DNA of 64,000 nt from an uncultured Bacteroidales bacterium (GCA_937877455.1 CALFIU010000189.1:28852-92851), one strand, 5' to 3'; shown: positions 4,736-53,083, numbered from the stretch's first letter. Notes: a model not told the origin generated them from the sequence alone. Program-made: numbers and translations.

Positions 4736-5935
4736 TCAAAGAAACTTGCCGACTTTCGTGACCTCTTCTTTGGTTTTATCTTCTAATATATGTGTGTAAG
4801 AGAGTGTGGTGCTGTAATTCGCATGTCCCATGATACTCTGAACAACAACAGGGTCTAACCCTTTTTCAAAACACCTTGTCGCAAATGTGTGTCTAAAACA
4901 ATGTGGATGAAGATGCCCGAATTCACGAGGTTTTCTTCCTTCACGATAAGCACGATTGCTTTCTTTCAGGATGATATTTGTCTCAACCTTCTTCAAATCA
5001 TGCACTATATTATATCTCGTGATAGGTGATCCCATCGTGGTTGTGAAAACCAAATCACCAAACTTTTCATCTGAACGCCAACGACTGCCGAGCTTCTGCC
5101 TGTATAAATCCTGCTTATTCTTCCATACTTTGAAGAGGTTTTCCGTATCATCAAAGAACGGAATAGAACGATACGAATTTGCTGTCTTTGGCGTAGTAAG
5201 CTCCATTATCTTTTTGCCATCCAGATAGGCAGTCATCATTGATCGTCTAATGTGAATGACTTTCTTTTCAAAATCTATATCATCCCACTGTAAACCAGAA
5301 AACTCACCAATCCTCATGCCAGTAACCAGAAGTATTCTATAAGGTTCATTATAATAACTGTCATTTACTTCTTCAAGAAAAACATCCTGTTCCCAATGGT
5401 TAAGAACTCTCCGCTCTTTCGCCATTTCGTTTCCTTCATGAACAGTAACGCCTCTGCATGGATTTACAGAAAGAATTTTGTTCACAATGGCAATGTCGAG
5501 ACACTCTCTGAGAACACTTAATGCTTCTTTTATACTTCTTGCATTATAATGTTCTACTTCATATAATTGAGTGGCAGCATCTTGAATATTCATCTGCGTG
5601 ACTTCTTCAATCCGCTTATCGCCCAATATCCTTATAAACGTGTTTCTGAGTTTCCTGTCATATGTTTTTCTGCTGACATCTGATTTCAGCTGCGGTGATT
5701 TACATTTTTCAAACCATTCATTGTACCATTCTTTTAGTTTTAAGTTTGGTCTAATACCCTTTTCATCTCTTAACACTCTTGCCTTTTCCATTTCAAAAGT
5801 TTTCTTTAGATTTGGAAGAGACATATCATAGATGTCGATTTTAACGCCGTTGATTTTCGCCCTTGCTTCATACCTCCCATCCGGGCGCTGACTAAATCCT
5901 TTTCCTAATTCTTTTCCTTTTAAGTCTTTTCCCAT
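4736..5935 (-). CDS. int: Tyrosine recombinase / phage integrase
   Basis: N-terminal SAM-like domain. Catalytic region contains LLVTGMRIGE ... HCFRHTFATRCFEKG ... MGHANYSTTLSYTH (R..HxxR..Y). AAGGAG RBS. Confidence 0.9.
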   Translation of the reverse strand: MGKDLKGKELGKGFSQRPDGRYEARAKINGVKIDIYDMSLPNLKKTFEMEKARVLRDEKGIRPNLKLKEWYNEWFEKCKSPQLKSDVSRKTYDRKLRNTFIRILGDKRIEEVTQMNIQDAATQLYEVEHYNARSIKEALSVLRECLDIAIVNKILSVNPCRGVTVHEGNEMAKERRVLNHWEQDVFLEEVNDSYYNEPYRILLVTGMRIGEFSGLQWDDIDFEKKVIHIRRSMMTAYLDGKKIMELTTPKTANSYRSIPFFDDTENLFKVWKNKQDLYRQKLGSRWRSDEKFGDLVFTTTMGSPITRYNIVHDLKKVETNIILKESNRAYREGRKPREFGHLHPHCFRHTFATRCFEKGLDPVVVQSIMGHANYSTTLSYTHILEDKTKEEVTKVGKFL

Positions 5936-25023: not shown

Positions 25024-25965
25024 TTAATGCGCATATTCGTCTGCTTCATGCAAAGCAACAACTTCATTAAATACTTTATCGCCAAGCTGTATCTTTAATC
25101 TCTTTTCGACACTCTTGCTCATCTTCCATTCACGATAAGGATGCATATGGAAATAAATCAAAGTCGCAACATGGATAATATCATCAACATGATAATCCAT
25201 ATTGTAAAGATAAAAGATTGAGTCATAAGCTCCTACACAATGATGTTGATAGTAATGGCAATTTCCATCTCTTTCACCTTTAGAATTTACAGCAGTCATT
25301 GTGAATATCTTTCCTTCATCGTGCAAAAGCGCCGCCAAATGAAGCAACTCATTTTTGGGATATTTCTCAAGGATATATTTTCCTGCTTTTCTACAATGCT
25401 CGCCAAGCGTTAAACTATGATGATGATTTCCCTGATCCATATAATCAATGCCTGTTGCGTGGTTATAAAGTGTTGCTAATGTATAATCGGCAAAATCTTC
25501 TCTCTGGCAACTAAACATGATATCTACATCATCCCATCCTTCAGTTTTGTGCGGAGGCTGAAAATTCATGTACATGCGCTTGATTACACTATCAGGAACT
25601 TTTCTTTCCCTTTTCTGATTATTAAGCAAACACACATAGTATGGTGCTACAACTAAAACACACGATTTATGGCAAGGAATATTTTTAAGTTCCTGAAGAA
25701 ACCCCATGCGCCTTTTTCTATTGAGATTTGTGGCATCGTAAATGACATCTTTACCATTCCTTAAATCTTCTTTGATGCGCCTATGTAATTCAGTGAAAAG
25801 CTGCGCGTTTGCTTCTTTTGAATTTTCATTTACATCACCAAACATTTCTTCACGAAGATCATCAGAAGAATGAAGCTGATAATATTTACTCAACGTTCTT
25901 GCATATGTAGACTTACCACTTCCGGGCAAACCTACAAGCATCATTAAAGTTGGTATATTGTTCAT
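25024..25965 (-). CDS. Polynucleotide kinase (P-loop) fused to an HD phosphohydrolase domain
   Basis: N-terminus LVGLPGSGKST...YDATNL (T4 Pnk / AAA_33-like kinase). C-terminus HHHS...LLHDEGK (HD). Confidence 0.75.
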   Translation of the reverse strand: MNNIPTLMMLVGLPGSGKSTYARTLSKYYQLHSSDDLREEMFGDVNENSKEANAQLFTELHRRIKEDLRNGKDVIYDATNLNRKRRMGFLQELKNIPCHKSCVLVVAPYYVCLLNNQKRERKVPDSVIKRMYMNFQPPHKTEGWDDVDIMFSCQREDFADYTLATLYNHATGIDYMDQGNHHHSLTLGEHCRKAGKYILEKYPKNELLHLAALLHDEGKIFTMTAVNSKGERDGNCHYYQHHCVGAYDSIFYLYNMDYHVDDIIHVATLIYFHMHPYREWKMSKSVEKRLKIQLGDKVFNEVVALHEADEYAH

Positions 25966-27332
25966 ATGGCATCCTCCACGATCAATTCTTCCGCTTCTTC
26001 CATGTCTGGCATGTCAGATGTATCTTTGATAATTCCTTCAAGACATTTAAAACTGAAGTTTTTATGTTTGTAAGCTGTAAAACTCGGTCTGTTATCAATT
26101 CTGATAACAACGCCTTCGCGAACATGTGTCTTACCAATCGGGTCTGCGCCATCATAGTATTTTTCGACACGCGCCATAAGATCATCCCATGTAGTAAAGA
26201 TAAACTTTTCAAATGTAGGAACACACTTAGCGCCCATCTTTTCGGCTTCAATTTGTACCTGTTCCCAAGGAAGTTCAACCATAATGCCATCTTCATTCAT
26301 CATTATCATGCGATAAACATATGCATCATTTTCTCCGACTTCACATCCGTAAGAGAACACGGTTTCTTTCCCGTACTGCTTCTGGAAATCTTTATCTTTC
26401 ACGAGCTTATTTGAACATTTGCCCATGATAGTCTGATTTCCTTCTGTATAGCCAACGACCTCATAGAACACTTCGCATCCTTTAGGAAGTTTGTCTTTGA
26501 AGAAATCATGATATTTCTGTCTGAATTTGTTACTTCCGTAGTAGCCACCGTCATACTCGCGCAATGTGGTTCTTCTTGTGCCAGTGATGTATTGATACTT
26601 TCTTGTCTGTTTATCGCGAAGTTTAAACAGTTTTTTCAGAATTGGGTTTCTTCTCTTCTTTGTAATCTGAAGTGTGTTGGCTGTCCTCTGGCTCGTGCCA
26701 TGCATCTTTAATGTGATGTAGCACGTATCGCCTTCTCTAAATGCGTTCTGATTAAATGCAAGCTGCTGTGTATCAATATGCTCAACGAATAAAGGATAAC
26801 TAACCGTTTCTTTTAATTCTTTCTTGTTTACCTTGTACTTGCTACCGCCAGAAGAATTGTTTCTCTTTCTCTTCGGAATATACTTTCTGCAAATCTCGTG
26901 ACCGTCAATTACAGAAATCATATCGCCATCTCTCAGTGTAGTTACATCGACATACTTTGAAAGCGTTTCAATCGGTAAAACTAATCCGTCAGACTTTTCG
27001 CCACGAAGTTTTAATGCCGTGATATTTCTTTTCTCGGCATCCATGTATCCACCGACATTTATAACATCAACGCCATCTTTCTGAATAATTTGCTTTCCTT
27101 CAATCTGTGCATCGTCAAGTTCGGAAACAGGAACGTATTTCTTGACAAGATTATTGTCTGTTGCAAATTCTTCACTCAGCTGCCCATCGACAGGGAAATA
27201 AATAACGCGCTGTCCTTCATGATAATTCAAATCAACAATAACATTATTCCCAAACACGCTCGTTGTGAGGAGTCTGTCTGCATTCGAGTGTTTATGTAAT
27301 TCCTTTAACGTAGTGACATATGCGAAATACAT
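25962..27332 (-). CDS. RNA ligase, DRB0094/DraRnl-like (N-terminal OB domain plus adenylyltransferase)
   Basis: N-terminus HSNADRLLTTSVFGNNVIV (OB module). Motif I is ITLKMHGTS (KxHG, as in the Rnl2/Rnl5 clade). Confidence 0.75.
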   Translation of the reverse strand: MYFAYVTTLKELHKHSNADRLLTTSVFGNNVIVDLNYHEGQRVIYFPVDGQLSEEFATDNNLVKKYVPVSELDDAQIEGKQIIQKDGVDVINVGGYMDAEKRNITALKLRGEKSDGLVLPIETLSKYVDVTTLRDGDMISVIDGHEICRKYIPKRKRNNSSGGSKYKVNKKELKETVSYPLFVEHIDTQQLAFNQNAFREGDTCYITLKMHGTSQRTANTLQITKKRRNPILKKLFKLRDKQTRKYQYITGTRRTTLREYDGGYYGSNKFRQKYHDFFKDKLPKGCEVFYEVVGYTEGNQTIMGKCSNKLVKDKDFQKQYGKETVFSYGCEVGENDAYVYRMIMMNEDGIMVELPWEQVQIEAEKMGAKCVPTFEKFIFTTWDDLMARVEKYYDGADPIGKTHVREGVVIRIDNRPSFTAYKHKNFSFKCLEGIIKDTSDMPDMEEAEELIVEDAI

Positions 27333-34348: not shown

Positions 34349-34414
34349 TTATCTTGCATTATCTATTATACCAAACATAAGATAGCTTGTCAATTACTAT
34401 CTTGTATTATTTCT
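34349..34414 (-). promoter_or_regulatory. Motif-bracketed promoter: AATAATACAAGATAG-N3-TTGACA-N17-TATAAT-N7-GCAAGATAA
   Basis: The minus strand reads GAAATAATACAAGATAGTAATTGACAAGCTATCTTATGTTTGGTATAATAGATAATGCAAGATAA. Confidence 0.7.
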
Positions 34415-35697
34415 TGATCTTCTTTCAGTTCTTGCGCCCAAGTTACAAGCCATTTATTTTTATTCTTGAATGGATCTCTCATCACTTCATCCAAAAGTAA
34501 ATGAAGTACATCGCCGATTTCCTTGCTTGGTTCATATCCAATTTCTATCAAATCATCGCCAGAAATATCCAACTTATCCAAGCTACAACAATCATTATTG
34601 CCGATAATGATTCCTGCGTCAACCTTCATCTGATTTATAAGTTTTAAAAACTTGAATTTATTGATTGGACTTGCGACCGTTGCTTTCGCCATCCAGTAAT
34701 CACACAGATTTTTCGTGTTTCTAAAACCTATCTCACTAATCAGTTTTCGTACTTCATATTTACGATCATCATACTTGAAGCTGATATGTTTATAATCTTC
34801 TTTATGCTTTAGAATATCGCAAATAAGTTTACTTCTTTGGTTATCCATGCGCATATCAGTCAAGATTTCTTTTGGATTATCCGTAAACTGTAGCAACAAT
34901 GCCATTCTTACAGCAAGTTCATCATCTTTATTTGTCGCCATCAAAGACTCGATAACTTCATGATGTTCAAATAAAGTTCCTGCGTTTTTCACGCTATCGT
35001 TAAAATATGGAGTAATACAGTAGAATAAATCAAGGCAATTATAAAGTGTCCTAAATGCACTCGGAAACTGTGTACTCATTATCTTACATGTTTCGGCGCA
35101 AATTCTTTCTTTGGATATGTTGCCAAGCAATTCACGATTATATTGCATAGACCAGAGAGTTTGATTTTCAATTCTAAATCCAAGTGTAATCGCAAATCTT
35201 AACCCACGCATTATGCGCAATCCATCTTCTTTAAACCTATCATCTGGATTACCAACGCACCGAATAACACCGTCTTGAATATCTTCTAATCCGTGGAATA
35301 AATCAACGATGCCTACATCTGGATTATACGCCATAGCATTGATCGTGAAGTCGCGCCTCTTCAAATCTTCTTCGAGTCTGTCAGTGAAATTTACGTCATC
35401 AGGATGCCGACCATCGCTATACGTTCCGTCTATTCTAAATGTCGTGATTTCATATGGTTTATCTTCTATCACTACAGTGACAGTACCATGTTTAATCCCT
35501 GTTTCAACTACTTTGTAATCCTGAAAAACTTTTTCTACAACTTCAGGTAATAATGCTGTGCATATATCCCAATCGTCAGGCTCTTTTCCGAGTATGTAAT
35601 CGCGAACGCAGCCACCAACCACATAGCCAATACTACCGTAGTCATTCAGTTTTTCTAATATAAATTCTACATTTTCAGGAAGGTGTATAATTCCCAT
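34390..35697 (-). CDS. cca: tRNA nucleotidyltransferase (CCA-adding enzyme / poly(A) polymerase family)
   Basis: Head-domain motif VGGCVRDYILG...DWDI and RDFTINA. Confidence 0.85.
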   Translation of the reverse strand: MGIIHLPENVEFILEKLNDYGSIGYVVGGCVRDYILGKEPDDWDICTALLPEVVEKVFQDYKVVETGIKHGTVTVVIEDKPYEITTFRIDGTYSDGRHPDDVNFTDRLEEDLKRRDFTINAMAYNPDVGIVDLFHGLEDIQDGVIRCVGNPDDRFKEDGLRIMRGLRFAITLGFRIENQTLWSMQYNRELLGNISKERICAETCKIMSTQFPSAFRTLYNCLDLFYCITPYFNDSVKNAGTLFEHHEVIESLMATNKDDELAVRMALLLQFTDNPKEILTDMRMDNQRSKLICDILKHKEDYKHISFKYDDRKYEVRKLISEIGFRNTKNLCDYWMAKATVASPINKFKFLKLINQMKVDAGIIIGNNDCCSLDKLDISGDDLIEIGYEPSKEIGDVLHLLLDEVMRDPFKNKNKWLVTWAQELKEDQEIIQDSN

Positions 35698-36721
35698 TTA
35701 ACACACTCCAATTCGCATCTGCGAGAAACTTGTTAATTCTATCGTAATCTGGATTAGGCGGTAAATCAGTATGTTCTTTTAAGTAATTCATTTTTGCTTC
35801 TAACTCATCTACCATTTCATAAAATTCTTTCGTTGGTTGTCTGTTATCATCAAGATACTTTCCGTTCCTGATATCCATAAGAAAATCGTGATCTTTAGCA
35901 CGATAAGTAATAATTTCACCACGCTCAAGAATATCGAAACACATCAAATAAAGTCGAACCAAATGCATCATGTGCTTTGATAATTTGTCGTGTTCTATAG
36001 CATGTTGATTGCGCTTTCCAAGTTTTGAATAATCCTTGACAATATTATTCATCTCAGACCACATGCATTTATAATCACGAAGCGGATAATGCTTTAATGA
36101 CACATCCATAAAAATTTCTGTATCATAGTCCTCTTGTTCTGACTTATCAATATACAGTCTAATTGCGTCCTCTGGATAATTGAAGTATTTTTCTGGATAA
36201 GAATATCGTGTGTTTTCAATACTTCCAAGAATATGTTCTTCACGTTTTGATTGTTCAACAAGTCTAACCGCCTTGTTATCGAGCCTTCGCGCTTGGGAAA
36301 CCGCATAACCTCCGAAAGAATGAACCGCCCTTTTTGAAAGAAACATATCCCTGTTATCAATCAACGCCTGACCAATATCGGAAACATACAAATACTGCCA
36401 CGGTTCTAATCCAAGGATCTCAATCGTATTGGGATTACAATTCGATAGCAAATTGATAATCTTTTCAAGAGAATATACCGTTGTATCAGTAGCTTCATTA
36501 ACAACCTGATCGAAACCTTTTCTTGTCAGAATATCTACTGCCGAATGTGTAGCGATTCCACGCACATCAAGATCGCTATTCTCGTTATTCGTGCCATATG
36601 CATGACTGCCGCCCAATCCAAGAAGAATAATATTCTCGCCTAACGGCTTTTCTCTCAGGAAACTATATTCATCCGATTCTACTTTGCGCTTAATCTCATC
36701 AATCGTCATACTTGTATTCAC
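35675..36721 (-). CDS. Pol-beta-fold nucleotidyltransferase, RlaP-like (RNA-repair-pathway family)
   Basis: LGLGGSHAYGTNNENSDLDVRG is an NTase motif, with a long helical C-terminus (recalled PF10127 pattern). Confidence 0.6.
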   Translation of the reverse strand: MNTSMTIDEIKRKVESDEYSFLREKPLGENIILLGLGGSHAYGTNNENSDLDVRGIATHSAVDILTRKGFDQVVNEATDTTVYSLEKIINLLSNCNPNTIEILGLEPWQYLYVSDIGQALIDNRDMFLSKRAVHSFGGYAVSQARRLDNKAVRLVEQSKREEHILGSIENTRYSYPEKYFNYPEDAIRLYIDKSEQEDYDTEIFMDVSLKHYPLRDYKCMWSEMNNIVKDYSKLGKRNQHAIEHDKLSKHMMHLVRLYLMCFDILERGEIITYRAKDHDFLMDIRNGKYLDDNRQPTKEFYEMVDELEAKMNYLKEHTDLPPNPDYDRINKFLADANWSVLNGNYTPS

Positions 36722-46100: not shown

Positions 46101-46552
46101 ACCAATATACCATCAAGAATACTGCTTACAAGTTTGCCATCTGCTTTACCTTTAACCTTCGGCATAAGCTCTTTCATAATGATACCTTTACTTTTCTTTG
46201 TTGCTGGATTATCAGAAGTAAAGCCAAGAGATAACATGACCTCTTCAATAACGGCTCTGATCTGTGTTTCATCCATCAATTCAGGAGCAAACTTCTTTAG
46301 TATTTCTATCCTTCTCTTGCATTGTTCGATAATATCCGTCCTATCTTCGGGACACATGTCTAACGTTTCCTGTGTCTGTCTGATTTCCTTATAGACAACA
46401 GCATTCTCTTCATCTTCCGTAAGCTCACGTTGTTTATCAATTTCCGCATTCTTTAACGCAGAAAGAAGCAATGAAAGCGTATCTTTTGTTTCTTGGTCAT
46501 GAGCTTTCATTGCGTCAATCATGCACATTCTTACATAATCTTCTTTCTTCAT
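46097..46552 (-). CDS. GatB/YqeY-domain protein
   Basis: AMKAHDQETKDTLSLLLSALKNAEI ... KGKADGKLVSSIL matches the YqeY pattern. Confidence 0.8.
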   Translation of the reverse strand: MKKEDYVRMCMIDAMKAHDQETKDTLSLLLSALKNAEIDKQRELTEDEENAVVYKEIRQTQETLDMCPEDRTDIIEQCKRRIEILKKFAPELMDETQIRAVIEEVMLSLGFTSDNPATKKSKGIIMKELMPKVKGKADGKLVSSILDGILV

Positions 46553-46566
46553 CTGGTTTCCTTTCT

Positions 46567-46599
46567 AAAAATGGCGCAATATATTTCAACTGCGCCATT
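46567..46599 (-). terminator. Hairpin plus U-run between the conserved motif and the yqeY-like gene RBS
   Basis: The minus strand reads AATGGCGCAGTTGAAATATATTGCGCCATTTTT. Confidence 0.55.
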
Positions 46600-46611
46600 A
46601 TCTTGCATTAT

Positions 46612-47268
46612 TTATTCATCCTTCTTCTCAGCTTTTTCTAATTCATCAAGAAGTCCTTTGAAAGACGCTTCAAGTTCTGTTGATGCTTGTTTTGAAACAT
46701 CATTGATTGCACGTTTATACGCTTCTGTCATTTCACGGATACGATCTTCACGCTTTTTGTTTTCAATACGCCGTGTCTCTTGCTTAATAGATGCAAGTTT
46801 CATTCTTTCTTCTTTAACTTTCTTTAGTTCTTCTTCTCTCTTTTTCTTTGTCGCGTCAACCTTTGTAAGTGCATATTTGATAATTTTGTTGTAAACAGAT
46901 GATCCAGTTCCGATAATATCCATATCTGCAAACATCTTCTTAACAACACAAATCAGAATACCAGTTTCAAGACTGAATACATCACCTTCATTCAGATGCG
47001 CAACTTCTTTCGTTCCGTCTGCAAACTCTACGAATACTGTTTTGTCATTCGGATTAGACACGTTGATAATGTCTGGCATTAAATTTGTATGACCGATAAT
47101 GCCGTTATCCTTATTAAGATATCCAAGGAATAGATCACCATCGTCCGCGAATAGCGTGCTGCCGACAGTATTTTGTTCCATCATGTTACGGAGAAATTCA
47201 ATGAAATCATTTTCATTTTTACCGTTGTAAAGCCCACATTCAACTACACTTAGTTCATTTTCGCCCAT
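46612..47268 (-). CDS. Hypothetical protein with C-terminal coiled coil
   Basis: Co-oriented ORF with a K/E-rich tail. Confidence 0.45.
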   Translation of the reverse strand: MGENELSVVECGLYNGKNENDFIEFLRNMMEQNTVGSTLFADDGDLFLGYLNKDNGIIGHTNLMPDIINVSNPNDKTVFVEFADGTKEVAHLNEGDVFSLETGILICVVKKMFADMDIIGTGSSVYNKIIKYALTKVDATKKKREEELKKVKEERMKLASIKQETRRIENKKREDRIREMTEAYKRAINDVSKQASTELEASFKGLLDELEKAEKKDE

Positions 47269-47303
47269 GATTTTTCCTCCATGTTCTTTGTTTTTAGTGG
47301 CAG

Positions 47304-47384
47304 TGCGGATGAAGGGATTCGAACCCTTACGCCTTTCGACATTAGTTCCTAAGACTAACGTGGCTGCCGTTACACCACATCCGC
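47304..47384 (-). tRNA. tRNA-Leu (anticodon TAG), class II
   Basis: Folds by hand as GCGGATG/CATCCGC acceptor, anticodon arm TTAGT-CTTAGGA-ACTAA, a 13-nt variable arm, and T arm AAGGG-TTCGAAT-CCCTT. Confidence 0.85.
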
Positions 47385-47389
47385 ATTTA

Positions 47390-47483
47390 CAAGGCGCATT
47401 TGTTGTTTGGTGTCCTTGTCGGACAAAAAGATAATTCCCATAATCATCGCTTGTTAAACATTTACGATTGCTGTATGCGCCTT
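47390..47483 (-). ncRNA. ACAGCAA-box structured RNA, stand-alone copy (closing helix AAGGCGCAT/ATGCGCCTT)
   Basis: The 9-bp closing helix encloses AU-ACAGCAAU, an ATCG...CGAT hairpin and a GTCC-GACAA-GGAC hairpin. Confidence 0.6.
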
Positions 47484-47515
47484 TCGTGCTATAATAACAA
47501 CCCTTTACAGGGTAA

Positions 47516-47588
47516 TAGAAGGAGAAGGAGTCGAACCTTCCGCAGCTGCTTTATAAGAACAGCCCCATCGCCGCTTGGGTATCCTTCC
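47516..47588 (-). tRNA. tRNA-Ile (anticodon TAT)
   Basis: GGAAGGA/TCCTTCT acceptor (G1-U72), anticodon arm CTGTT-CTTATAA-AGCAG, and T arm GAAGG-TTCGACT-CCTTC. Confidence 0.75.
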
Positions 47589-47936
47589 AAACATAATCAA
47601 TACCAATTCTCCTCGTCAATAATTACTCAATCACCGAAACACTGTTAGTTGGTTTGCGTTGCCTTCTTCACCGAATGGCTACTTAATCCACATCCACGCC
47701 TCATTATCGGCGATTTGAATTGATATTGATTTGTCCGTATTGACTCGTCCTGTTTTCAGCCCCAACAGTCAGACCACCATCACGCACGATAGGCAGAACC
47801 AATCAACCGATACTCGTACACTGTTGCGTTTTATAGTATATTAGTAAATCTGGTGCGTCAGTCATCATAAGTGAATAAGTATATATCATTTCAACTTATT
47901 CCATCCTTGTCTACGGATGTTTTACTTATTTCTGAT
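47589..47936 (-). ncRNA. ORF-free, relatively GC-richer ~350-nt segment inside the tRNA array; candidate large structured RNA
   Basis: No minus-strand ORF. Several local and long-range complementarities, including CATCC..GGATG, GAATAAGT..ACTTATTC and CAACAGT..ACTGTTG. Confidence 0.3.
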
Positions 47937-48017
47937 TGCGGTGATTAGGATTCGAACCTATACCTCGCCCACGTTTCCCATGTCTACAGGCGTATGCTGC
48001 CTCTTACAACACACCGC
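47937..48017 (-). tRNA. Aberrant tRNA-like gene (normal acceptor and T arm, enlarged ~15-nt anticodon loop)
   Basis: GCGGTGT/TCACCGC acceptor and T arm ATAGG-TTCGAAT-CCTAA. The stem CGCC(TG)/(TG)GGCG closes the loop TAGACATGGGAAACG. Confidence 0.45.
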
Positions 48018-48151
48018 TTTTCAGTTATTCCATACCTTTGCATTTGTCCTATGGTTAGCTACACCATCGCCACCCTCACACTATTGCTAATCTTTCCCTC
48101 GATGCTATTCTTTGGATAACCTTTCTGAATTATTCGCGATATAATTCATAG

Positions 48152-48233
48152 TGCGGATAAAGGGATTTGCACCCTTACGCCATTCGGCATGGAATTTTAA
48201 GTTCCACATGTCTGCTTGTTCCATCATATCCGC
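48152..48233 (-). tRNA. tRNA-Leu (anticodon TAA), class II
   Basis: GCGGATA/TATCCGC acceptor, anticodon arm TGGAA-CTTAAAA-TTCCA, a long variable arm, and T arm AAGGG-TGCAAAT-CCCTT. Confidence 0.85.
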
Positions 48234-49004
48234 TTATATGGTGTTCCATTCATAGTCTGATATTCTTTTTATTTCAGAAGAATGATATGGCAAGTTATAT
48301 GATTTGCACCATTTTCTTATAGAATTGTCACTAACACCATAATTTTTCCCAATTTGTAAAAATGAATGATGTCTAATCATGTGCTTTAAGACATCTCTTT
48401 CTGGCTTTTTGCTTATGGCACTATATCTCTTTTTAACTTCACACGATTTACATCTTTTTGCATGTCTACTTATTTCTTTTCCACAATCGGCACAATAATT
48501 TTTAGAATCAATTTTATTTCCTATATGACTATCATGATTCGTAACGACATGTTCATATTTTCTTTTTGCACGACCACGATAGTTATCTGTTAACGCGTGG
48601 CAATTTGGACACAAAACCTTTAAGTTGCTCAAATTATTATTAAAATGATTTCCGTCTACATGATGGAGTTCAAGAGGAATCTGAACACCTTGCCAATATT
48701 CTAAACCGCAATTTTCACATTTCATATTTTTGATACCTTCTTTAATCAATCTATTTTTTAATGAAAGTGATTTAATTGGTTTTTCGTTATTCAAGAAAAT
48801 TTCAATTGGCAATTGTTTCCTATTACAACTATAACCTTTATGTGATTTATTTCCTTCATAATTAATACCAAGCACATTTAAATACTTGTTTAATGTCGTT
48901 GATTTACATGAAAGCTCTCTGCAAATATATTGTTTAGACCTATTTTCTGAAATCCATTTTAAAATATCATCTTTTCTTTCTAATATATCCTTTCTTTGTT
49001 TCAT
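48234..49004 (-). CDS. HNH homing endonuclease embedded in the tRNA array
   Basis: CENCG...LELHHVDGNHFNNNLSNLKVLCPNCH plus C-terminal HTH-like repeats. Its stop codon abuts the tRNA-Leu(TAA) 5' end. Confidence 0.8.
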   Translation of the reverse strand: MKQRKDILERKDDILKWISENRSKQYICRELSCKSTTLNKYLNVLGINYEGNKSHKGYSCNRKQLPIEIFLNNEKPIKSLSLKNRLIKEGIKNMKCENCGLEYWQGVQIPLELHHVDGNHFNNNLSNLKVLCPNCHALTDNYRGRAKRKYEHVVTNHDSHIGNKIDSKNYCADCGKEISRHAKRCKSCEVKKRYSAISKKPERDVLKHMIRHHSFLQIGKNYGVSDNSIRKWCKSYNLPYHSSEIKRISDYEWNTI

Positions 49005-49194
49005 TAAATATTCACTGACGAGTTAATATATTTTTTTTTAAAGTGTAAAGACCTTTACAATAAACTTTACACGTATTTTGTTTAGCGCTTAAAAGTAAAC
49101 CAAATGACAACATACACACTGAAACACAAAGCACAAATCTATCTTTAGGAGGAGATACACCATGTAGCGCTAAATCAGGTTTTAGAAGTTTGAA

Positions 49195-49320
49195 CGGCGA
49201 GGACAGGACTCGAACCTGCGACCTACGGCGTTTAAGGCATAATATTAAAATTGCTGTGTGTATCTTAACAAGATACGTTGTTTGTTTTTACGTTGCTCTA
49301 ACCGACTGGGCTACCTCGCC
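49195..49320 (-). tRNA. tRNA body (Asn-like GTT stem-loop) with extra sequence on both sides of the anticodon hairpin
   Basis: Has the GGCGAGG/CCTCGCC acceptor, U8A9, D arm GCCC-AGTCGGTTA-GAGC and T arm GCAGG-TTCGAGT-CCTGT. The centre is A/C-rich linker, then GTATC-TTGTTAA-GATAC, then ACACAGCAAU plus 26 nt. Confidence 0.6.
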
Positions 49321-49387
49321 GACATAGTGGATATGGCATGGAATAATCCAAGGTAAGAACCCATATCCACTTTACATATGAGTGTTC

Positions 49388-49438
49388 TAAGCGCTTATAC
49401 CCTTATCTGCTAATGGTTATAATTGCTGTTGGCGCTTA
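49388..49438 (-). ncRNA. ACAGCAA-box structured RNA, stand-alone copy (helix TAAGCGC/GCGCTTA)
   Basis: The closing helix, the CA-ACAGCAA box and a second helix TTATAACC/GGGTATAA with a 12-nt loop. Confidence 0.55.
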
Positions 49439-49447
49439 AATTTATAT

Positions 49448-50947
49448 TTACAGTAATCCTTCTACAGCTTCTCTTACTTTCGCATAGCGTTCTCCATTCA
49501 GCGTTTCAAGAAGAACTTTGTAAGGATCGACCTGATTGCTCATGAACATCTTCAGAATTTGAACCGAAAATCCACTGCAAAGAATAAGTCCCATGTCATT
49601 CTGTTGCATCGGAATTGTTCCGTTTAATCTACCACTTAAATTCCAGAAACAAATCCTCGGAAGTTTATATCCTGCATCCTCAAACTCCTGCGCAATTTCG
49701 TCAAACAGGCTCTTGTTAAGATTATGAGAATGACCGTCAAACTGCATGTCAGAACAAATCACAATCATCTTTGGCATATCTTCCGCAGAAGTATGATTTC
49801 TTTTTGCTGTTTTCAGGATTAGCATCATAGTCTTATAGATGTCTGTATTTGAACAATCTGACTCGCGCAAGGAAAGATCGATTTTATCTGCAAGCGAATA
49901 ACAATTCGACAGATCGACAATCTTCGGATTGGACGAAAAAGTGACGAACTTATTTTTCCAATCACCTGTATTATGTTCGGACATATAGATTGCAAGCGCG
50001 GTTGCTACATCCAAAGGTGTACCACTTCCTGCAAAACTTCCCCATGTCATAGAACCAGAACCATCACGAACAATCAGTGTGTTCTCTACAGACAAGTCAG
50101 GAAGAGCTTTCCATAGTGCTTCGAGCGTTGCGTCATTTCTGCATCTATTCTGGCGATACTTCAGGCAGATCTCGTGAGGATTAAGTGTACTTGCGTTAAT
50201 CTTTACAGTTCCTTTTTCAAGTGATGCAAGATATTCGCGTCTACGATCTTCATCGTTACGGAGAAACGCGCCGTTGTATATCAGATTAGCCTTAGAAGGC
50301 ACAGACTCGTAATTGATTTTATCCCACTTTTTAGCACTCATCTTGACTTCGACAACATCAAGATATTTTCTAAGTTTGGACAAAGTCTTTCTGTACTTCT
50401 TTTCTGTCCATCCAAGTTCACGGCAAATCAGTTTTGCTCTATCAACTGTTATCTTGGATGATGCATTAACACTCGGCATCCACTTCGCGCACAACGAAAT
50501 CGACTTGCCTTCTTTCATGTTCGCTTTATCTTCTTTCAGCTGCGCCTTGATTAAAGCGATTGCCTTTCCTCTCGTTCTTTCATCATCGAGCATAACCATG
50601 ACGCTATCCCAACGATTATAGAACGGAATAAGATCAACAATAGCTTTTGCAATTTTCGGCTGTTTCTCTGCAAGATAACTTAAACCAGCTCTGAAAGCTT
50701 TTCTCTCGCCAAGCCCTTCACGGACATCGCCAAGATAGAAAAGATATTCAAGTGCAGTCAGCTTATCCTCGAAGAAAACCTTCATGAAATCTTCCTTGAT
50801 TGCTTCGGGAAATCTGTTTCGCATAGCGGATACGCCAAAGTTGAAATCAAGAAGTTTCTTTCCTGCTGTCGCATAAGCGATCGCGCCGTTTGTGGTTACT
50901 GATTTTTGAGTGTTCAATTCATTTTGCATTTCATCGAAGAAACTCAT
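49448..50947 (-). CDS. Ro60-like TROVE/vWA protein (DUF2828-type)
   Basis: N-terminus TTNGAIAYATAG..LLDF...LFYLGDVREGLGERKAF (TROVE/DUF2828-like). C-terminal vWA MIDAS motif RDGSGSM. Confidence 0.65.
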   Translation of the reverse strand: MSFFDEMQNELNTQKSVTTNGAIAYATAGKKLLDFNFGVSAMRNRFPEAIKEDFMKVFFEDKLTALEYLFYLGDVREGLGERKAFRAGLSYLAEKQPKIAKAIVDLIPFYNRWDSVMVMLDDERTRGKAIALIKAQLKEDKANMKEGKSISLCAKWMPSVNASSKITVDRAKLICRELGWTEKKYRKTLSKLRKYLDVVEVKMSAKKWDKINYESVPSKANLIYNGAFLRNDEDRRREYLASLEKGTVKINASTLNPHEICLKYRQNRCRNDATLEALWKALPDLSVENTLIVRDGSGSMTWGSFAGSGTPLDVATALAIYMSEHNTGDWKNKFVTFSSNPKIVDLSNCYSLADKIDLSLRESDCSNTDIYKTMMLILKTAKRNHTSAEDMPKMIVICSDMQFDGHSHNLNKSLFDEIAQEFEDAGYKLPRICFWNLSGRLNGTIPMQQNDMGLILCSGFSVQILKMFMSNQVDPYKVLLETLNGERYAKVREAVEGLL

Positions 50948-50987
50948 AATTGCTTTACCTCTCTCTTCTTAGTTTGTGGTTGCAATT

Positions 50988-51053
50988 CAAGGCACTGGTT
51001 TTGGTTGTAAGATTAAAAGTCTTATCCATAATTGTGGTTGCTGTATGTGCCTT
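50988..51053 (-). ncRNA. T-arm-less mini tRNA-like RNA displaying a Lys(UUU) anticodon stem-loop (ACAGCAA-box family)
   Basis: Reads AAGGCAC-AU-ACAGCAACCACAATTATGGA-[TAAGA-CTTTTAA-TCTTA]-CAACCAAAACCA-GTGCCTT-G. Confidence 0.6.
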
Positions 51054-51061
51054 AAATATAT

Positions 51062-51178
51062 AGCGCACGATTGGATTCGAACCAATGACACGATTTTTTG
51101 TTTGTTTAATTGCTGATTGCGATTATCACTAACCACGTTTAACAAGTTAAATTGCACTACCAACTGTGCTACGTGCGC
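51062..51178 (-). tRNA. tRNA body with ~50-nt insertion in the anticodon loop region
   Basis: Has the GCGCACG/CGTGCGC acceptor, U8A9, D arm GCAC-AGTTGGTA-GTGC and T arm ATTGG-TTCGAAT-CCAAT. The insert carries AU-CAGCAAU. Confidence 0.6.
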
Positions 51179-51193
51179 CATCCCTTTCGGGAA

Positions 51194-51349
51194 AAGCAGC
51201 GACAGGAATCGAACCTATGACTGCGGCTTGCCTCGGTAAATTTGCTGTATGTTTCTTTAATTCCCCAACTCTAACTCGTCTGTGCGGTTACTCTTGGTGG
51301 TAACAAGAAACATTTTTATGCCGCCGTGATCCCACTTCACTACGCCACT
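51194..51349 (-). tRNA. tRNA body with ~85-nt insertion inside the anticodon loop
   Basis: Reads AGTGGCG-UA-GTGA-AGTGGGA-TCAC-G-GCGGC[92 nt]GCCGC-AGTC-ATAGG-TTCGATT-CCTGT-CGCTGCT-T. The insert holds the GTTTCTT...AAGAAAC helix and AU-ACAGCAA. Confidence 0.7.
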
Positions 51350-51352
51350 TCG

Positions 51353-51476
51353 CCCATCGTGAAGGATTCGAACCTTCCCCTCAAGTTTTCCAGACTTGTA
51401 ATTGATATGTAATATTGCTGCAAGCGCTTCACTAAACGCACAATCAAAAGATGTGCTACCGCTACACCAACGATGG
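51353..51476 (-). tRNA. tRNA body with ~53-nt insertion between the D arm and the anticodon arm
   Basis: Has the CCATCGT/ACGATGG acceptor, D arm GTGT-AGCGGTA-GCAC, anticodon arm CAAGT-CTGGAAA-ACTTG and T arm GAAGG-TTCGAAT-CCTTC. The insert holds the hairpin GCGTTT-AGTG-AAGCGC followed by UU-GCAGCAAU. Confidence 0.6.
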
Positions 51477-51491
51477 GATATTTAATTTTTA

Positions 51492-51558
51492 CAAGACACT
51501 GAAATGGTAATATAAGTTAACAGCTTATTCCTCTTTCATTTATTGCTGTTTGTGTCTT
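51492..51558 (-). ncRNA. T-arm-less mini tRNA-like RNA displaying an Asn(GUU) anticodon stem-loop (ACAGCAA-box family)
   Basis: Reads AAGACAC-AA-ACAGCAATAAATGAAAGAGGA-[ATAAG-CTGTTAA-CTTAT]-ATTACCATTTCA-GTGTCTT-G. Confidence 0.6.
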
Positions 51559-51570
51559 TCATTTTTAACA

Positions 51571-51661
51571 CAAGGCACTTTATTTTGATGGACTTGAACC
51601 ATCTCGCAAAGACTTACAATGTATTTACTTTATCCGATGTTAAGTTTGCTGTATGTGCCTT
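51571..51661 (-). ncRNA. ACAGCAA-box RNA with a canonical T arm (Y-RNA/tRNA-like hybrid)
   Basis: Reads AAGGCAC-AU-ACAGCAA..., then TAAAG[16-nt loop]CTTTG, then GATGG-TTCAAGT-CCATC, then AAAATAAA-GTGCCTT-G. Confidence 0.55.
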
Positions 51662-51666
51662 TCTTG

Positions 51667-51732
51667 TTATCTTGCAATACCTATTATAGCATGCCGTTTA
51701 TGGTTTTGCAAGTGTTATTTTGTATTATTTCT
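51667..51732 (-). promoter_or_regulatory. Motif-bracketed promoter inside the RNA array: AATAATACAAAATAA-N3-TTGCAA-N17-TATAAT-N7-GCAAGATAA
   Basis: The minus strand reads GAAATAATACAAAATAACACTTGCAAAACCATAAACGGCATGCTATAATAGGTATTGCAAGATAA. Confidence 0.7.
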
Positions 51733-51765
51733 AATACTTTTTGAATGTCAACAACAACGGCAACG

Positions 51766-51838
51766 TGCGCCAGATGGGATTTGAACCCATGACTTTTCGA
51801 TTAAAAGTCGAATACTCTACCATCTGAGTTACTGGCGC
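51766..51838 (-). tRNA. tRNA-Lys (anticodon TTT)
   Basis: GCGCCAG/CTGGCGC acceptor, D arm ACTC-AGATGGTA-GAGT, anticodon arm TTCGA-CTTTTAA-TCGAA, and T arm ATGGG-TTCAAAT-CCCAT. Confidence 0.9.
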
Positions 51839-51842
51839 TTAA

Positions 51843-51913
51843 CAACCCCTGATGGAGTCGAACCATCACATACAGGGTCAAAGCCTGTTTCGCTACCGTT
51901 ACGATAAGGGGCT
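51843..51913 (-). tRNA. tRNA-Gln (anticodon TTG)
   Basis: AGCCCCT/AGGGGTT acceptor, anticodon arm ACAGG-CTTTGAC-CCTGT, and T arm GATGG-TTCGACT-CCATC. Confidence 0.8.
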
Positions 51914-52042
51914 AAAAAGTATTGCGTTTGTCGAAAGTTTATGTTATCATATATGAGCCATCATTAGTTTGATGTGCTTTGTGTATGTGGTAGGGAGTTG
52001 GCTTTAAGCCTTCTCCCTATCTTTATTTCCTTCAACTCTTAT

Positions 52043-52092
52043 AGTGTACCACACGCGCAAATATTCGTCAAGCGTTTTTTTGCATTATTTTT
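52043..52092 (-). promoter_or_regulatory. Promoter of the tRNA/RNA array: AATAATGCAAAAAAA-N3-TTGACG-N17-TACACT (TG-extended)
   Basis: The minus strand reads AAAAATAATGCAAAAAAACGCTTGACGAATATTTGCGCGTGTGGTACACT. Confidence 0.65.
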
Positions 52093-52095
52093 AAT

Positions 52096-52470
52096 TTAAT
52101 CACAGTACCCTGTTATAAGCTCGATCCCATATTTATTAAGAACCTTTTCAACTGCATCCCAATAGTATCTTCCACAATCTTCGTTATCTATAACGAATAC
52201 GTTCTCATATTTCTTATCATTTGTATTAACAGTCCAATAACACACTTCGTAAGGTTCATCTACATATTCTTTAATTCTGAAGTGACCGATTCCGTCGCCG
52301 CTAACATCAGACCAGTCATATTCATCATAATCGTCATCGCGCCAATGTTTAGCTTCTTCGTTCGCCATTTCCAGAAGAATATCGAGTAACCGTCCGTGTG
52401 TCACTTTATCTCTGGAAATAATGAAACTACTTGAGCTACTATTCGTCACAAAATCTTTTCTAATTTTCAT
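52096..52470 (-). CDS. Ser-tract family paralog C (start reassigned to MKIRKDFVTNSSSSSF)
   Basis: Shares the invariant N-terminus with 53096-53563 and 53560-53991. Confidence 0.55.
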   Translation of the reverse strand: MKIRKDFVTNSSSSSFIISRDKVTHGRLLDILLEMANEEAKHWRDDDYDEYDWSDVSGDGIGHFRIKEYVDEPYEVCYWTVNTNDKKYENVFVIDNEDCGRYYWDAVEKVLNKYGIELITGYCD

Positions 52471-53083
52471 TCTTTTCCACCATAGTATCAATAATATAAT
52501 AAAACGATTGATATATAAGTATCCCCCCAATAGCATTAAATAAAATATTTAACAGTAAATATCTAAGTACATTCAAATTGAATAATCCAGCAACAGAAAA
52601 ATAAAACACGTTTGCTATGCAATGTTCAAATCCGCAAAATACGAAGATAGAAGTTGCCATCCATAGAATAATTGTTCTAAATATATGCGAAACATTCTCG
52701 TTCTTAAATGTATCAACGGCAATAAAGAGCAAGACATTACACATAATAGCAAGAGGAATAATTTCCCATCCCTCGGTGAGTTTGCTTCTGCAAATTTCCA
52801 TCGCACTAACAATTAGTGTTGGCTTGGCATATCCGAAAACAATTCCCATAAGTGTTGCACCAACAATATTTCCAAAAAGAATTAAAATCAATTTTGGTAT
52901 GCCAGATATCCCGGCGATATATGGCGCTTTTCCTGTAAACAAATTTAAATGATACGCGCAAACAATCAGTAATCCTATAGGGAATAATAAAGCTTGTTTA
53001 GTACACAGGTAAGCTATTGCTCCGATAGATATTGCCACTCCTGCCCATATAGAACTTATAAATATTTCTAGTTTATCTTTCAT
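52460..53083 (-). CDS. Formate/nitrite transporter (FNT)-like membrane protein
   Basis: Six hydrophobic segments. CGFEHCIANVFYF resembles the FNT signature GFEHSIANM. Confidence 0.5.
   Translation of the reverse strand: MKDKLEIFISSIWAGVAISIGAIAYLCTKQALLFPIGLLIVCAYHLNLFTGKAPYIAGISGIPKLILILFGNIVGATLMGIVFGYAKPTLIVSAMEICRSKLTEGWEIIPLAIMCNVLLFIAVDTFKNENVSHIFRTIILWMATSIFVFCGFEHCIANVFYFSVAGLFNLNVLRYLLLNILFNAIGGILIYQSFYYIIDTMVEKNEN

Follow-up and report, generated by a model that had tools for sequence, protein, structure and literature searches.

Probable Y-RNA-like chimeras carrying tRNA parts accompany DUF2828/vWA genes, with a predicted Ro60-like product, in phage tRNA arrays

The subject of this study is a cluster of small RNA genes in a stretch of 64,000 nucleotides (nt) of DNA from an uncultured Bacteroidales bacterium (GCA_937877455.1 CALFIU010000189.1:28852-92851), here called the window, to whose positions all coordinates refer unless another locus is named. 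Within a phage transfer RNA (tRNA) gene array the window holds four tRNA-shaped loci, five free-standing RNAs that share a module with them and, at the centre of the cluster, a gene for a DUF2828/vWA protein. A first reading, made from the sequence only, had described the four loci as tRNA genes interrupted in the anticodon region and had proposed that they mature by cutting and rejoining, with stable, never-spliced tRNA/Y-RNA chimeras as the alternative. Beyond that reading, the present analysis links the inserts to the DUF2828 open reading frame (ORF), adds the five free-standing copies and recognizes a circular permutation between the two forms. An H-type element is a module within a tRNA body, where the RNA ends at the acceptor stem, and an S-type element is a free-standing module RNA. 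Names beginning with L denote loci used for comparison, among which L004 is the closest relative on a long contig. The H-type elements are as follows; bit scores refer to the covariance model described below.

49195..49320, minus strand: class A; acceptor stem GGCGAGG/CCTCGCC, D arm, a short ACG/CGT stem replacing the anticodon stem, and an A-rich linker
49251-49276, minus strand: class A module; hairpin GTATCTT-gtt-AAGATAC followed by ACA-CAGCAA
49195..49320, minus strand, 3' part of class A: T arm GCAGG-TTCGAGT-CCTGT, discriminator G, CCA not encoded; 99.5 bits; orthologs at L004 5645-5771 and L006 5557-5684
51062..51178, minus strand: class B; acceptor stem GCGCACG/CGTGCGC, D arm, T arm ATTGG-TTCGAAT-CCAAT, discriminator T; 103 bits; orthologs at L002 2790-2905, L004 3772-3889 and L006 3819-3925
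51110-51136, minus strand: class B module; hairpin GTGGTTA-gtga-TAATCGC followed by AAT-CAGCAA
51194..51349, minus strand: class C; acceptor stem AGTGGCG/CGCTGCT, D arm, a 5-bp anticodon-stem equivalent GCGGC/GCCGC, and T arm
51242-51312, minus strand: class C module; helix GTTTCTT/AAGAAAC with its loop enlarged by a structured arm of about 47 nt, then ATA-CAGCAA
51353..51476, minus strand: class D; acceptor stem CCATCGT/ACGATGG, D arm, and an extra arm after position 26 formed by a TTGAT...ATCAA helix on which the module hairpin sits; 86.4 bits
51415-51439, minus strand: class D module; hairpin GCGTTT-agtg-AAGCGC followed by TTG-CAGCAA
51353..51476, minus strand, 3' part of class D: anticodon-arm-like hairpin CAAGT-CTGGAAA-ACTTG, 4-nt variable loop and T arm; orthologs at L004 3470-3595 (loop CTACAAA) and L002 2662-2785 (loop CATTAATAAA, 10 nt)

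The intervals of the sequence-only reading, 51353-51476, 51194-51349, 51062-51178 and 49195-49320, all on the minus strand, were recovered to the base by an independent boundary finder that demanded a CAGCAA box, a 7/7 acceptor stem, a D arm and a 5-base-pair (bp) T stem with a loop of TTCGA type. Each locus has a perfect 7-bp acceptor stem, a D arm, a TTCGAnT T arm and an insert of 50-90 nt with A-CAGCAA, and the claim that every insert carries an ACAGCAA-box module is borne out by a CAGCAA box with a hairpin ahead of it in all four. Two further details of that reading were seen again at the loci themselves: GCGGC/GCCGC encloses about 92 nt in 51194-51349, and in 51353-51476 the insert follows position 26 and precedes the arm CAAGT-CTGGAAA-ACTTG. 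The 92-nt insert of class C is large because the loop of the module hairpin is expanded by a further structured arm. In the test against RF00005 the canonical acceptor stem of 7 bp, both the D and the T arm and the conserved tertiary nucleotides were all recognized; covariation is seen in the D and T stems, and U8, A14, G18, A21 and GTTCGA vary little or not at all. The Rfam tRNA model matches 51062-51178 (45.8 bits) and 49195-49320 (44.4 bits) over their full length, with a long insertion placed in each anticodon arm, and 51353-51476 gives only a partial match below threshold. Default ARAGORN called none of the four loci and found five ordinary tRNAs. Most H-type elements have an anticodon-stem equivalent of 3-6 bp, on which an A-rich linker leads to the hairpin and box and a return strand follows; classes A-C lack the combination of a 5-bp anticodon stem with a 7-nt loop.

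The five S-type RNAs of the window (51-93 nt) and the protein gene are located as follows.

51572..51661, minus strand: S-type RNA 1; AAGGCAC-ATA-CAGCAA ... GTGCCTT, with a T-arm mimic GATGG-TTCAAGT-CCATC in the variable region
51493..51558, minus strand: S-type RNA 2; AAGACAC-AAA-CAGCAA ... GTGTCTT, with an anticodon stem-loop mimic ATAAG-CTGTTAA-CTTAT (GUU, Asn-type loop)
50989..51053, minus strand: S-type RNA 3; AAGGCAC-ATA-CAGCAA ... GTGCCTT, ending 42 nt upstream of the DUF2828 start codon
49448..50947, minus strand: gene for a 499-amino-acid protein with DUF2828 and DUF7788/vWA domains (Pfam; weak VWA_2 match), at the centre of the module cluster
49388..49438, minus strand: S-type RNA 4; TAAGCGC-CAA-CAGCAA ... 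GCGCTTA, starting 10 nt downstream of the DUF2828 stop codon
47391..47483, minus strand: S-type RNA 5; AAGGCGC-ATA-CAGCAA ... GCGCCTT, between tRNA-Ile and tRNA-Leu

One unit recurs in all CAGCAA contexts, namely a helix of 6-7 bp (consensus AAGRCRC...GYGYCTT), a 3-nt spacer ending in A, and CAGCAA. In the S-type the helix is made by the unit's own two ends, and in the H-type the same two strands are adjacent and loop-closed (GYRYCTT-G-loop-AAGRYRC-NNA-CAGCAA) and are housed in a tRNA body; the H-type is a circular permutation of the S-type. The window has 20 occurrences of ACAGCAA where 10.3 +/- 3.2 are expected, and 7 of the 11 strict stem-plus-box modules in the whole window fall into the minus-strand cluster at 47.4-51.7 kilobases (kb), classes B and D failing the strict descriptor solely through G-U pairs or a 6-bp helix. 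ACAGCAA pairs with an upstream strand in class B only, and the box is therefore treated as single-stranded. No Rfam family covers the module at gathering or permissive thresholds in the window and 16 loci. A strong 11-bp hairpin (GTGGATATGGG...CCATATCCAC) lies at 49328-49371 (minus strand) between S-type RNA 4 and class A; folded jointly with the S-type RNA it gives z = -3.98, a sequence resembling it trails the equivalent module in L002, and it could be a processing site, a terminator or a part of the RNA.

The covariance model was built from 18 H-type elements of relatives, and a covariance-model alignment was used since MAFFT mis-registered the class D hairpin. The four window loci score 61.7-103 bits against 25-45 bits for ordinary tRNAs; the lowest value belongs to class C, which was outside the training set. 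The model also found members outside that set in L002, L044, L054, L063, L099 and Aeromonas phage LAh_6 (71.5 bits; NC_048774.1 at about 82731-82847, minus strand), a phage that also has several S-type copies. Across 27 H-type elements standard pairs occupy 97.8% of cells, against 64.9% in shuffled and at most 48.8% in slid controls, two-sided changes occur in 21 of 22 pairs (17.1 shuffled, at most 14 slid), and the covariation score is 0.938 (0.266 shuffled). All four helices are supported in this 27-sequence alignment, the module hairpin included. The class C ortholog, L004 3599-3755, has acceptor stem GGCAGTG/CACTGCT and anticodon-stem equivalent GCAGT/GCTGC, both changes being compensatory. 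In L004 the order of all nine elements is the same (S-S-D-C-B-S-gene-S-A), and identity to it is 75-96% for the H-type and 65-83% for the S-type elements compared with 54% at the gene's third codon positions; class B alone reaches 96%. Decay without conservation in related phages was looked for, and the loci prove to be kept, above third-codon-position identity and syntenic with L004, so that they are not decaying pseudogenes. On this comparative evidence the RNA structure appears to be under selection.

All nine copies in the window lie within 2.1 kb of the DUF2828 gene and on its strand, and a module stands beside a DUF2828 gene in 18 of 19 loci, with 1-9 copies per gene. Nine related metagenomic or viral loci, whose proteins are 53-83% identical to that of the window, carry both S- and H-forms on the gene strand, no farther from the gene than about 700 nt on its upstream side and 400 nt on its downstream side. 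Eleven cultured phages were picked across the similarity ranking, with hosts from Enterococcus, Bacillus, Mycobacterium, Escherichia, Listeria, Campylobacter, Fusobacterium, Staphylococcus, Vibrio, Aeromonas and Prevotella (phage Lak). S-type modules occupy unannotated gaps beside the gene in all of these but Lak, although the proteins of the ten module-bearing host-genus phages are only 29-38% identical to that of the window. Carriers of S-type copies include Listeria phages of the LMTA-34/A511-like kind and Staphylococcus phage S-CoN_Ph6. The DNA of the region matched cultured phages at the canonical tRNA-Lys alone and hence has no close cultured relative. The counts rest on a strict descriptor (7-bp helix, 3-nt spacer, CAGCAA, fixed register, shuffle control), which replaced a looser scanner (6-bp stem, spacer 2-4) that gave about 0.4 partners per box by chance. 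Of the 109 boxes that lie on the gene strand but outside the gene, 77 fit it, compared with 5 of 47 elsewhere and 30 of 529 in shuffled sequence, and the strict modules comprise more than 40 different helix sequences. A reverse search of IMG/VR with the loose pattern ACAGCAA-N28-58-GTGCCTTG returned mostly chance matches, which were kept as an internal control: a DUF2828 gene lies within 460 nt on the same strand for 5 of 10 full modules and for 1 of 110 chance-like matches.

Some side observations concern the cultured phages. Tiny "hypothetical protein" ORFs overlie module RNAs in GenBank records (L010 2362-2478; L013 4364-4465 and 4849-4998; L137 4013-4102 and 4232-4360) and are probably annotation artefacts. 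In Listeria phage LMTA-34 (KJ586794.1, L014 961-1512) a ROOL-like RNA (88.5 bits against a gathering score of 99.1 bits) precedes the three module RNAs by about 650 nt and the DUF2828 gene by 1 kb; a gene for an RtcB RNA ligase follows the DUF2828 gene at a distance of 1.3 kb.

The 499-amino-acid protein is labelled "RNA-binding protein" in PHROGs (phrog_850). Its AlphaFold2 model, made with 35 homologs, has a predicted local distance difference test score (pLDDT) of 79.3 and a predicted template modelling score of 0.73, and consists of an alpha-helical repeat region followed by a C-terminal vWA domain, which is the arrangement of Ro60. The six best Foldseek matches in the PDB are all full-length Ro60/TROVE structures (9KOP, 1YVR, 1YVP, 9NEP and 9NFA among them), with E-values of 4e-8 to 5e-6, template modelling (TM) scores of 0.50-0.55 (about 0.52) and 511-573 aligned columns; the matches after these are vWA domains alone, at E > 2e-3. 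The DxSxS residues of the metal-ion-dependent adhesion site (D295, S297 and S299) are invariant across the 35 homologs. DUF2828 homologs occur in at least 711 phage records, and annotators of mycobacteriophages use the name "Ro-like RNA binding protein". On the strength of the predicted fold and the gene association this protein is most likely the partner of all module-bearing RNAs.

What the module presents was studied by scanning 86 distinct S-type RNAs for hairpins with a 5-bp stem and a 7-nt loop, with shuffled sequences as control. Such a hairpin is found in the variable region of 41 of the 86, compared with 14.7 +/- 3.3 after shuffling, and a YU-NNN-R loop in 23 (1.5 +/- 1.2 after shuffling, maximum 6). 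The anticodon-loop signature C-U-NNN-A-A is present in about 17 of the 86, at the window, L001, L002, L004, L009, L044, L139, L012 and L015, and the stems covary. Among the mimics Lys UUU is the commonest, ahead of Asn GUU, Thr GGU, Ser UGA and Ser GCU. There are six instances of CTTTTAA (Lys UUU), on four different stems (window 50989-51053, L001, L004, L009, L044 and Aeromonas phage LAh_6), and two of CTGTTAA (Asn GUU), window 51493-51558 included. The mimic of S-type RNA 3, TAAGA-CTTTTAA-TCTTA, has a loop identical to that of the phage's own tRNA-Lys(UUU), and this RNA has a minimum free energy of -15 kcal/mol (z -3.8). The ortholog of S-type RNA 2 in L002 reads ATAGT-CTGTTAA-ACTAT, which shows that its stem covaries. 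T-loop mimics were seen in about six S-type RNAs, window 51572-51661 included, and mycobacteriophage Snenia has an S-type RNA with a permuted, YrlA-like tRNA domain (39.3 bits) inside it. One handle is thus combined with three displays: the anticodon stem-loop can stand without a body, the body can stand without that stem-loop, and the body can be permuted. The nuclease AriB of PARIS targets Lys(UUU), Thr(UGU) and Asn(GUU) (PMC12409363), and the Lys mimics retain U-A-A-U-C around the AriB cleavage site; this overlap is only a lead.

The surroundings of the cluster include the following features, of which the first four are given as context, their association with the module RNAs being inferred.

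25024-25965, minus strand: kinase (AAA_33/KTI12) and HD-type domain protein
25962-27332, minus strand: RNA ligase (PF09414)
34390-35697, minus strand: CCA-adding enzyme (PolyA_pol head and tRNA_NucTran2_2)
35675-36721, minus strand: RlaP-family nucleotidyltransferase
51842-51914, minus strand: tRNA-Gln(UUG), canonical, directly upstream of the cluster
51765-51838, minus strand: tRNA-Lys(UUU), canonical, directly upstream of the cluster
48151-48233, 47515-47589 and 47303-47384, minus strand: further canonical tRNAs
51683..51751, minus strand: two sigma-70-like promoter matches, TTGACA-16-AATAAT (11/12) and TTGCAA-17-TATAAT with TG (10/12)

The polynucleotide kinase-HD enzyme, the RNA ligase, the CCA-adding enzyme and the RlaP-like nucleotidyltransferase that the sequence-only reading had listed were thus all located, the first as the kinase and HD-type protein at 25024-25965. 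None of the tRNA and tRNA-like genes examined encodes CCA. The promoter matches lie between tRNA-Lys and the first S-type RNA, the elements are spaced by 3-15 nt as in a tRNA operon, and no terminator-like site was found between the RNA genes and the protein gene. Several observations on the wider array stand apart from the module RNAs. L004 has a transfer-messenger RNA (2671-2980, 101.7 bits) in the same tRNA/module-RNA array. Suppressor-type tRNAs (TCA called selenocysteine, CTA called pyrrolysine) and a tRNA with a 4-base anticodon call (gtga) are present in relatives at L002 5118-5190 and at L003 4581-4663 and 2283-2361, which hints at stop-codon reassignment or suppression in this phage group. 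An ORF of the formate/nitrite transporter family (about 200 amino acids), unusual for a phage, is conserved close to the cluster in this lineage, at 52460-53083 (minus strand) of the window and at L004 1770-2378, L006 511-1074 and L009 7721-8326. A gene of the tyrosine integrase family at 4736-5935 (minus strand) may mean that the element is temperate or integrative.

It could be supposed that the inserts are short introns, cut by an endonuclease, after which the phage kinase/HD enzyme and RNA ligase would rejoin the exons into decoding tRNAs. The canonical tRNA bodies agree with such a scheme, the kinase and HD protein, RNA ligase, CCA-adding enzyme and RlaP-family nucleotidyltransferase are all phage-encoded, and ARAGORN -i can force an intron model on 26 of the 27 elements. 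However, the same intron-permissive run speaks against splicing, since orthologs with identical arms receive differing anticodons and intron positions (class B is called Ala, Stop, Asp and Phe; class D His, Val and Ile; class C Ala and Val; class A Leu, Cys and Phe). The 7 nt after the anticodon-stem equivalent resemble an anticodon loop, with U33 and R37, in only three of the seven elements with a clear stem, for example AUAAAAA in class C and AUUAUAA in L001 2729-2848, and class B lacks any counterpart of the anticodon stem. The insert is the most conserved, covarying part of these loci and exists as independent RNAs, which are found also in the sampled cultured phages where the model detected no tRNA-embedded form. 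Rfam intron families gave no match at E <= 10 in 46500-52500, no splicing endonuclease was seen among 30 scanned ORFs (no explicit search for bulge-helix-bulge motifs was made), and phage kinase/ligase pairs are already accounted for as tRNA-repair enzymes (PMC7824862). Because the module is shared with free-standing RNAs and the insert is conserved but the anticodon is not, the split-gene explanation is disfavoured and appears very improbable. Decoding tRNAs with an added protein-binding arm are equally hard to defend, even for class D, to which this proposal mainly applies. There a canonical 5-bp/7-nt hairpin with C32, U33, A37 and A38 is followed by a 4-nt variable loop and a T arm; yet the class D loop is CTGGAAA in the window, CTACAAA in L004 and CATTAATAAA in L002, which means that the supposed anticodon changes from GGA to ACA between proteins that are 83% identical and that the third loop has 10 nt. 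A Ser-type tRNA normally has a long variable arm, which the GGA of class D would lead one to expect and which is absent, and classes A, B and C have no anticodon loop.

Another possible origin is that tRNA pseudogenes are decaying after a small repeated or mobile element broke them, in which case the 7-bp "stem" would be the terminal inverted repeats of that element. It would suit this that the free-standing copies are short repeated units with inverted repeats at their borders, dispersed in a tRNA array, where rearrangements are frequent. We nevertheless hold this origin to be extremely improbable: the inverted repeats covary in more than 40 different helices and are not fixed in sequence, all copies have a single orientation on the gene strand, the embedded form is permuted with a loop-closed helix, which insertion cannot yield, the tRNA arms are 97.8% paired with compensatory changes, and conservation is far above that of synonymous sites with perfect synteny. 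A module that acts in cis, either as an operator by which the DUF2828 protein regulates its own messenger RNA or as a nuclease site for processing of the tRNA array, deserves more attention but is still unlikely. Ribosomal proteins set a well-known precedent of autoregulation through messenger RNAs that mimic their natural RNA ligand; two copies lie close to the gene, one with its end 42 nt ahead of the start codon and one beginning 10 nt beyond the stop codon, and the copies lie in one probable transcription unit without an internal terminator. On the other hand, there are nine copies per genome, some of them 2 kb away with tRNAs and another ORF between, and four are housed in full tRNA bodies that covary and have acceptor ends of their own, a feature implying that they are released as separate RNAs. 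The conserved mimics of tRNA parts in the variable regions would be superfluous for an operator. Roles as a cis signal and as a trans-acting RNA are not mutually exclusive.

The explanation that we regard as probable is that the elements are stable, unspliced chimeric RNAs, Y-RNA-like partners of a Ro60-like DUF2828/vWA protein, which display parts of tRNAs. Of the two options left by the sequence-only reading, it is the never-spliced chimeras that are favoured, given the predicted Ro60-like fold of the product of the adjacent ORF and the fact that the module travels with that protein family in phages of bacteria from many phyla. Several points weigh against this explanation. The covariation alignment was fitted to the structure of the model itself, and the strict descriptor gives four probable chance matches elsewhere in the window. 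The link to Ro60 is one of predicted structure only (pLDDT 79, TM about 0.52, root-mean-square deviation about 9 Å); neither phmmer nor a 35-sequence profile searched against PDB sequences gave a match for the 499-amino-acid protein, and a Pfam scan did not match it to TROVE. ACAGCAA is unlike every known Ro60 recognition motif (GGUCCGA / GNCGAA), and the module could bind another factor, for example a processing nuclease. The most divergent homolog, that of the Lak phage (25% protein identity), has no module nearby. In the reverse search 5 of the 10 full modules have no DUF2828 gene in the fetched locus, two of these loci being shorter than 1.7 kb. The total number of promoters in the region is not above that of shuffled sequences, only the position and quality of the matches being suggestive.

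Observed are the structures, their covariation, conservation and synteny, the gene association, the Ro60-like predicted fold and the lack of a conserved anticodon; for binding, processing, stability and biological role we infer the following scheme. The RNAs and the protein gene would probably be co-transcribed from the promoters just downstream of tRNA-Lys, and the tRNA-shaped RNAs may be released by RNase P, 3' trimming and CCA addition by the phage enzyme. The four loci would then give stable unspliced RNAs in which the module replaces the anticodon loop of a tRNA body or, in class D, stands beside an anticodon arm. The module, a 6-7 bp helix with single-stranded NNA-CAGCAA, could serve as the docking site for the DUF2828/vWA protein, which would result in particles analogous to those of Ro60 and Y RNA. 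The variable part would present some portion of a tRNA, be it a T arm, a lone anticodon stem-loop or a whole body that lacks its anticodon loop, and these parts may link the protein to tRNA-binding factors or decoy such factors, as a Y RNA tethers Ro60 to PNPase. The most plausible setting would be that of host defences that cleave tRNA and of the RNA-repair enzymes of the phage.

In many phage lineages, as a tentative and by no means favoured extension, a Ro60-like protein loaded with tRNA-part mimics may serve as a decoy, sponge or capture platform against tRNA-targeting nucleases or toxins, or may hand damaged tRNAs over to the kinase, ligase and CCA repair enzymes. The repertoire would consist of Lys, Asn, Thr and Ser anticodon stem-loops, T-arm/elbow domains and tRNA bodies that lack the anticodon loop. 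If this holds, phages would have a new means of countering defences with RNA, and the Ro60-Y RNA system a new branch that uses a recognition code of its own (helix and ACAGCAA). The DUF2828/vWA phages include Felixounavirus, Listeria, Staphylococcus, Campylobacter and mycobacteriophage groups, for which an RNA partner had not been described before, and a short helix with ACAGCAA that shows tRNA parts in three topologies gives a concrete candidate partner for DUF2828. If the binding is real, the Ro60-Y RNA paradigm extends to a second protein family with another recognition code, an explanation is at hand for the unannotated stretches, and for tiny ORFs that are probably spurious, in many phage tRNA arrays, and tRNA mimicry is tied to the contest of phages with bacterial defences that cleave tRNA. 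A practical caution follows for annotation, as intron-permissive tRNA finders label such loci "tRNAs with introns" and assign arbitrary anticodons.

Among known systems YrlA and other Y RNAs are the closest in design. In both cases small noncoding RNAs, often in several copies, adjoin a gene of Ro60 type (here by predicted fold), and each RNA combines one protein-binding helix region, with a conserved recognition sequence on or beside the 5' strand of the helix, and one variable effector region in which the T arm, D arm and acceptor stem of a tRNA are imitated. The recognition sequence differs, being NNA-CAGCAA beside a covarying helix here and GNCGAA / GGUCCGA in YrlA, whose consensus has no CAGCAA-type element, and the partner is DUF2828 and not Pfam TROVE. 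YrlA ends at the Ro-binding stem and its acceptor stem is closed, whereas the four window loci have the natural tRNA order, an open acceptor end and a loop-closed protein-binding helix; display of a lone anticodon stem-loop, as in some members here, is unreported for Y RNAs. The gathering score of YrlA (RF02553, 69 bits) was not reached at window 51126-51240 (23.3), L006 3750-3871 (33.7) or L012 4064-4172 (39.3), and the window and L006 matches arise where the T arm of a tRNA-like gene is followed by the D arm of its neighbour, tandem tRNAs being false positives of which Chen et al. 2014 warned (PMC4201824). The tRNA-like domains of YrlA are recognized by RNase P, the CCA-adding enzyme, TruB and DusA (PMC4201824).

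Two phage systems bear directly on the proposal. The Ro60 of Thermus phage phiLo binds phage Y-like RNAs and host PNPase (PMC12135203), and its structure (9KOP) is the best structural match of the window protein model. Both systems have a phage protein of Ro60 fold (predicted here) and Y-like RNAs just upstream of its gene (Yrl1/Yrl2 in phiLo), but the phiLo protein is a recognizable Ro60 homolog, its RNAs have CGAA in a 5'-3' stem-bulge-stem, and a tRNA-embedded form is not described for it. In Escherichia phage Bas63, studied in the PhageMaP preprint, deletion of the Ro60-like gp130 sensitizes the phage to the Ppl defence system, and gp130 adjoins a tRNA gene array in which the authors speculate that some annotated tRNAs are Y RNAs (PMC11482910). 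This Felixounavirus protein is likewise Ro60-like, the comparison being made by description and DUF2828 membership not being assumed, and the related Felixounavirus LinBro has a DUF2828 homolog with four module RNAs. No partner RNA has been identified for gp130, whereas the candidate RNAs described here lie between annotated tRNAs, partly under tiny "hypothetical" ORFs.

Interrupted and permuted tRNA genes (archaeal and eukaryal with bulge-helix-bulge, bacterial with group I introns, and those of red algae) share the interrupted anticodon region and the circular permutation. The loci described here differ in having no conserved exon junction or anticodon and no intron core, and in having inserts that are conserved and also free-standing; what is permuted is a protein-binding helix relative to a tRNA-like domain and not a pair of rejoined tRNA halves. 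With the phage systems of tRNA repair and replacement (T4 Pnk/Rnl1 against PrrC; T5 tRNAs against PARIS AriB; PMC11464382, PMC12409363) they have in common the location in a tRNA array, the co-occurrence of a kinase/HD protein, an RNA ligase and a CCA-adding enzyme, and the mimics of Lys(UUU) and Asn(GUU), which are AriB targets. They differ in that these RNAs cannot decode and thus cannot simply replace cleaved tRNAs. Literature searches on DUF2828, on Ro-like proteins with phage noncoding RNA and on Ro60 in anti-defence turned up no description of these RNAs, and none is in Rfam 15; the nearest published statement is the speculation on Y RNAs among the tRNA genes by Bas63 gp130 (PMC11482910). 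The system is therefore Ro60-Y-RNA-like, yet its RNAs stand outside YrlA by score, motif and H-type topology, and its protein stands outside TROVE by sequence. What is new in it is the recognition code, the unpermuted tRNA topology and the display of anticodon stem-loops.

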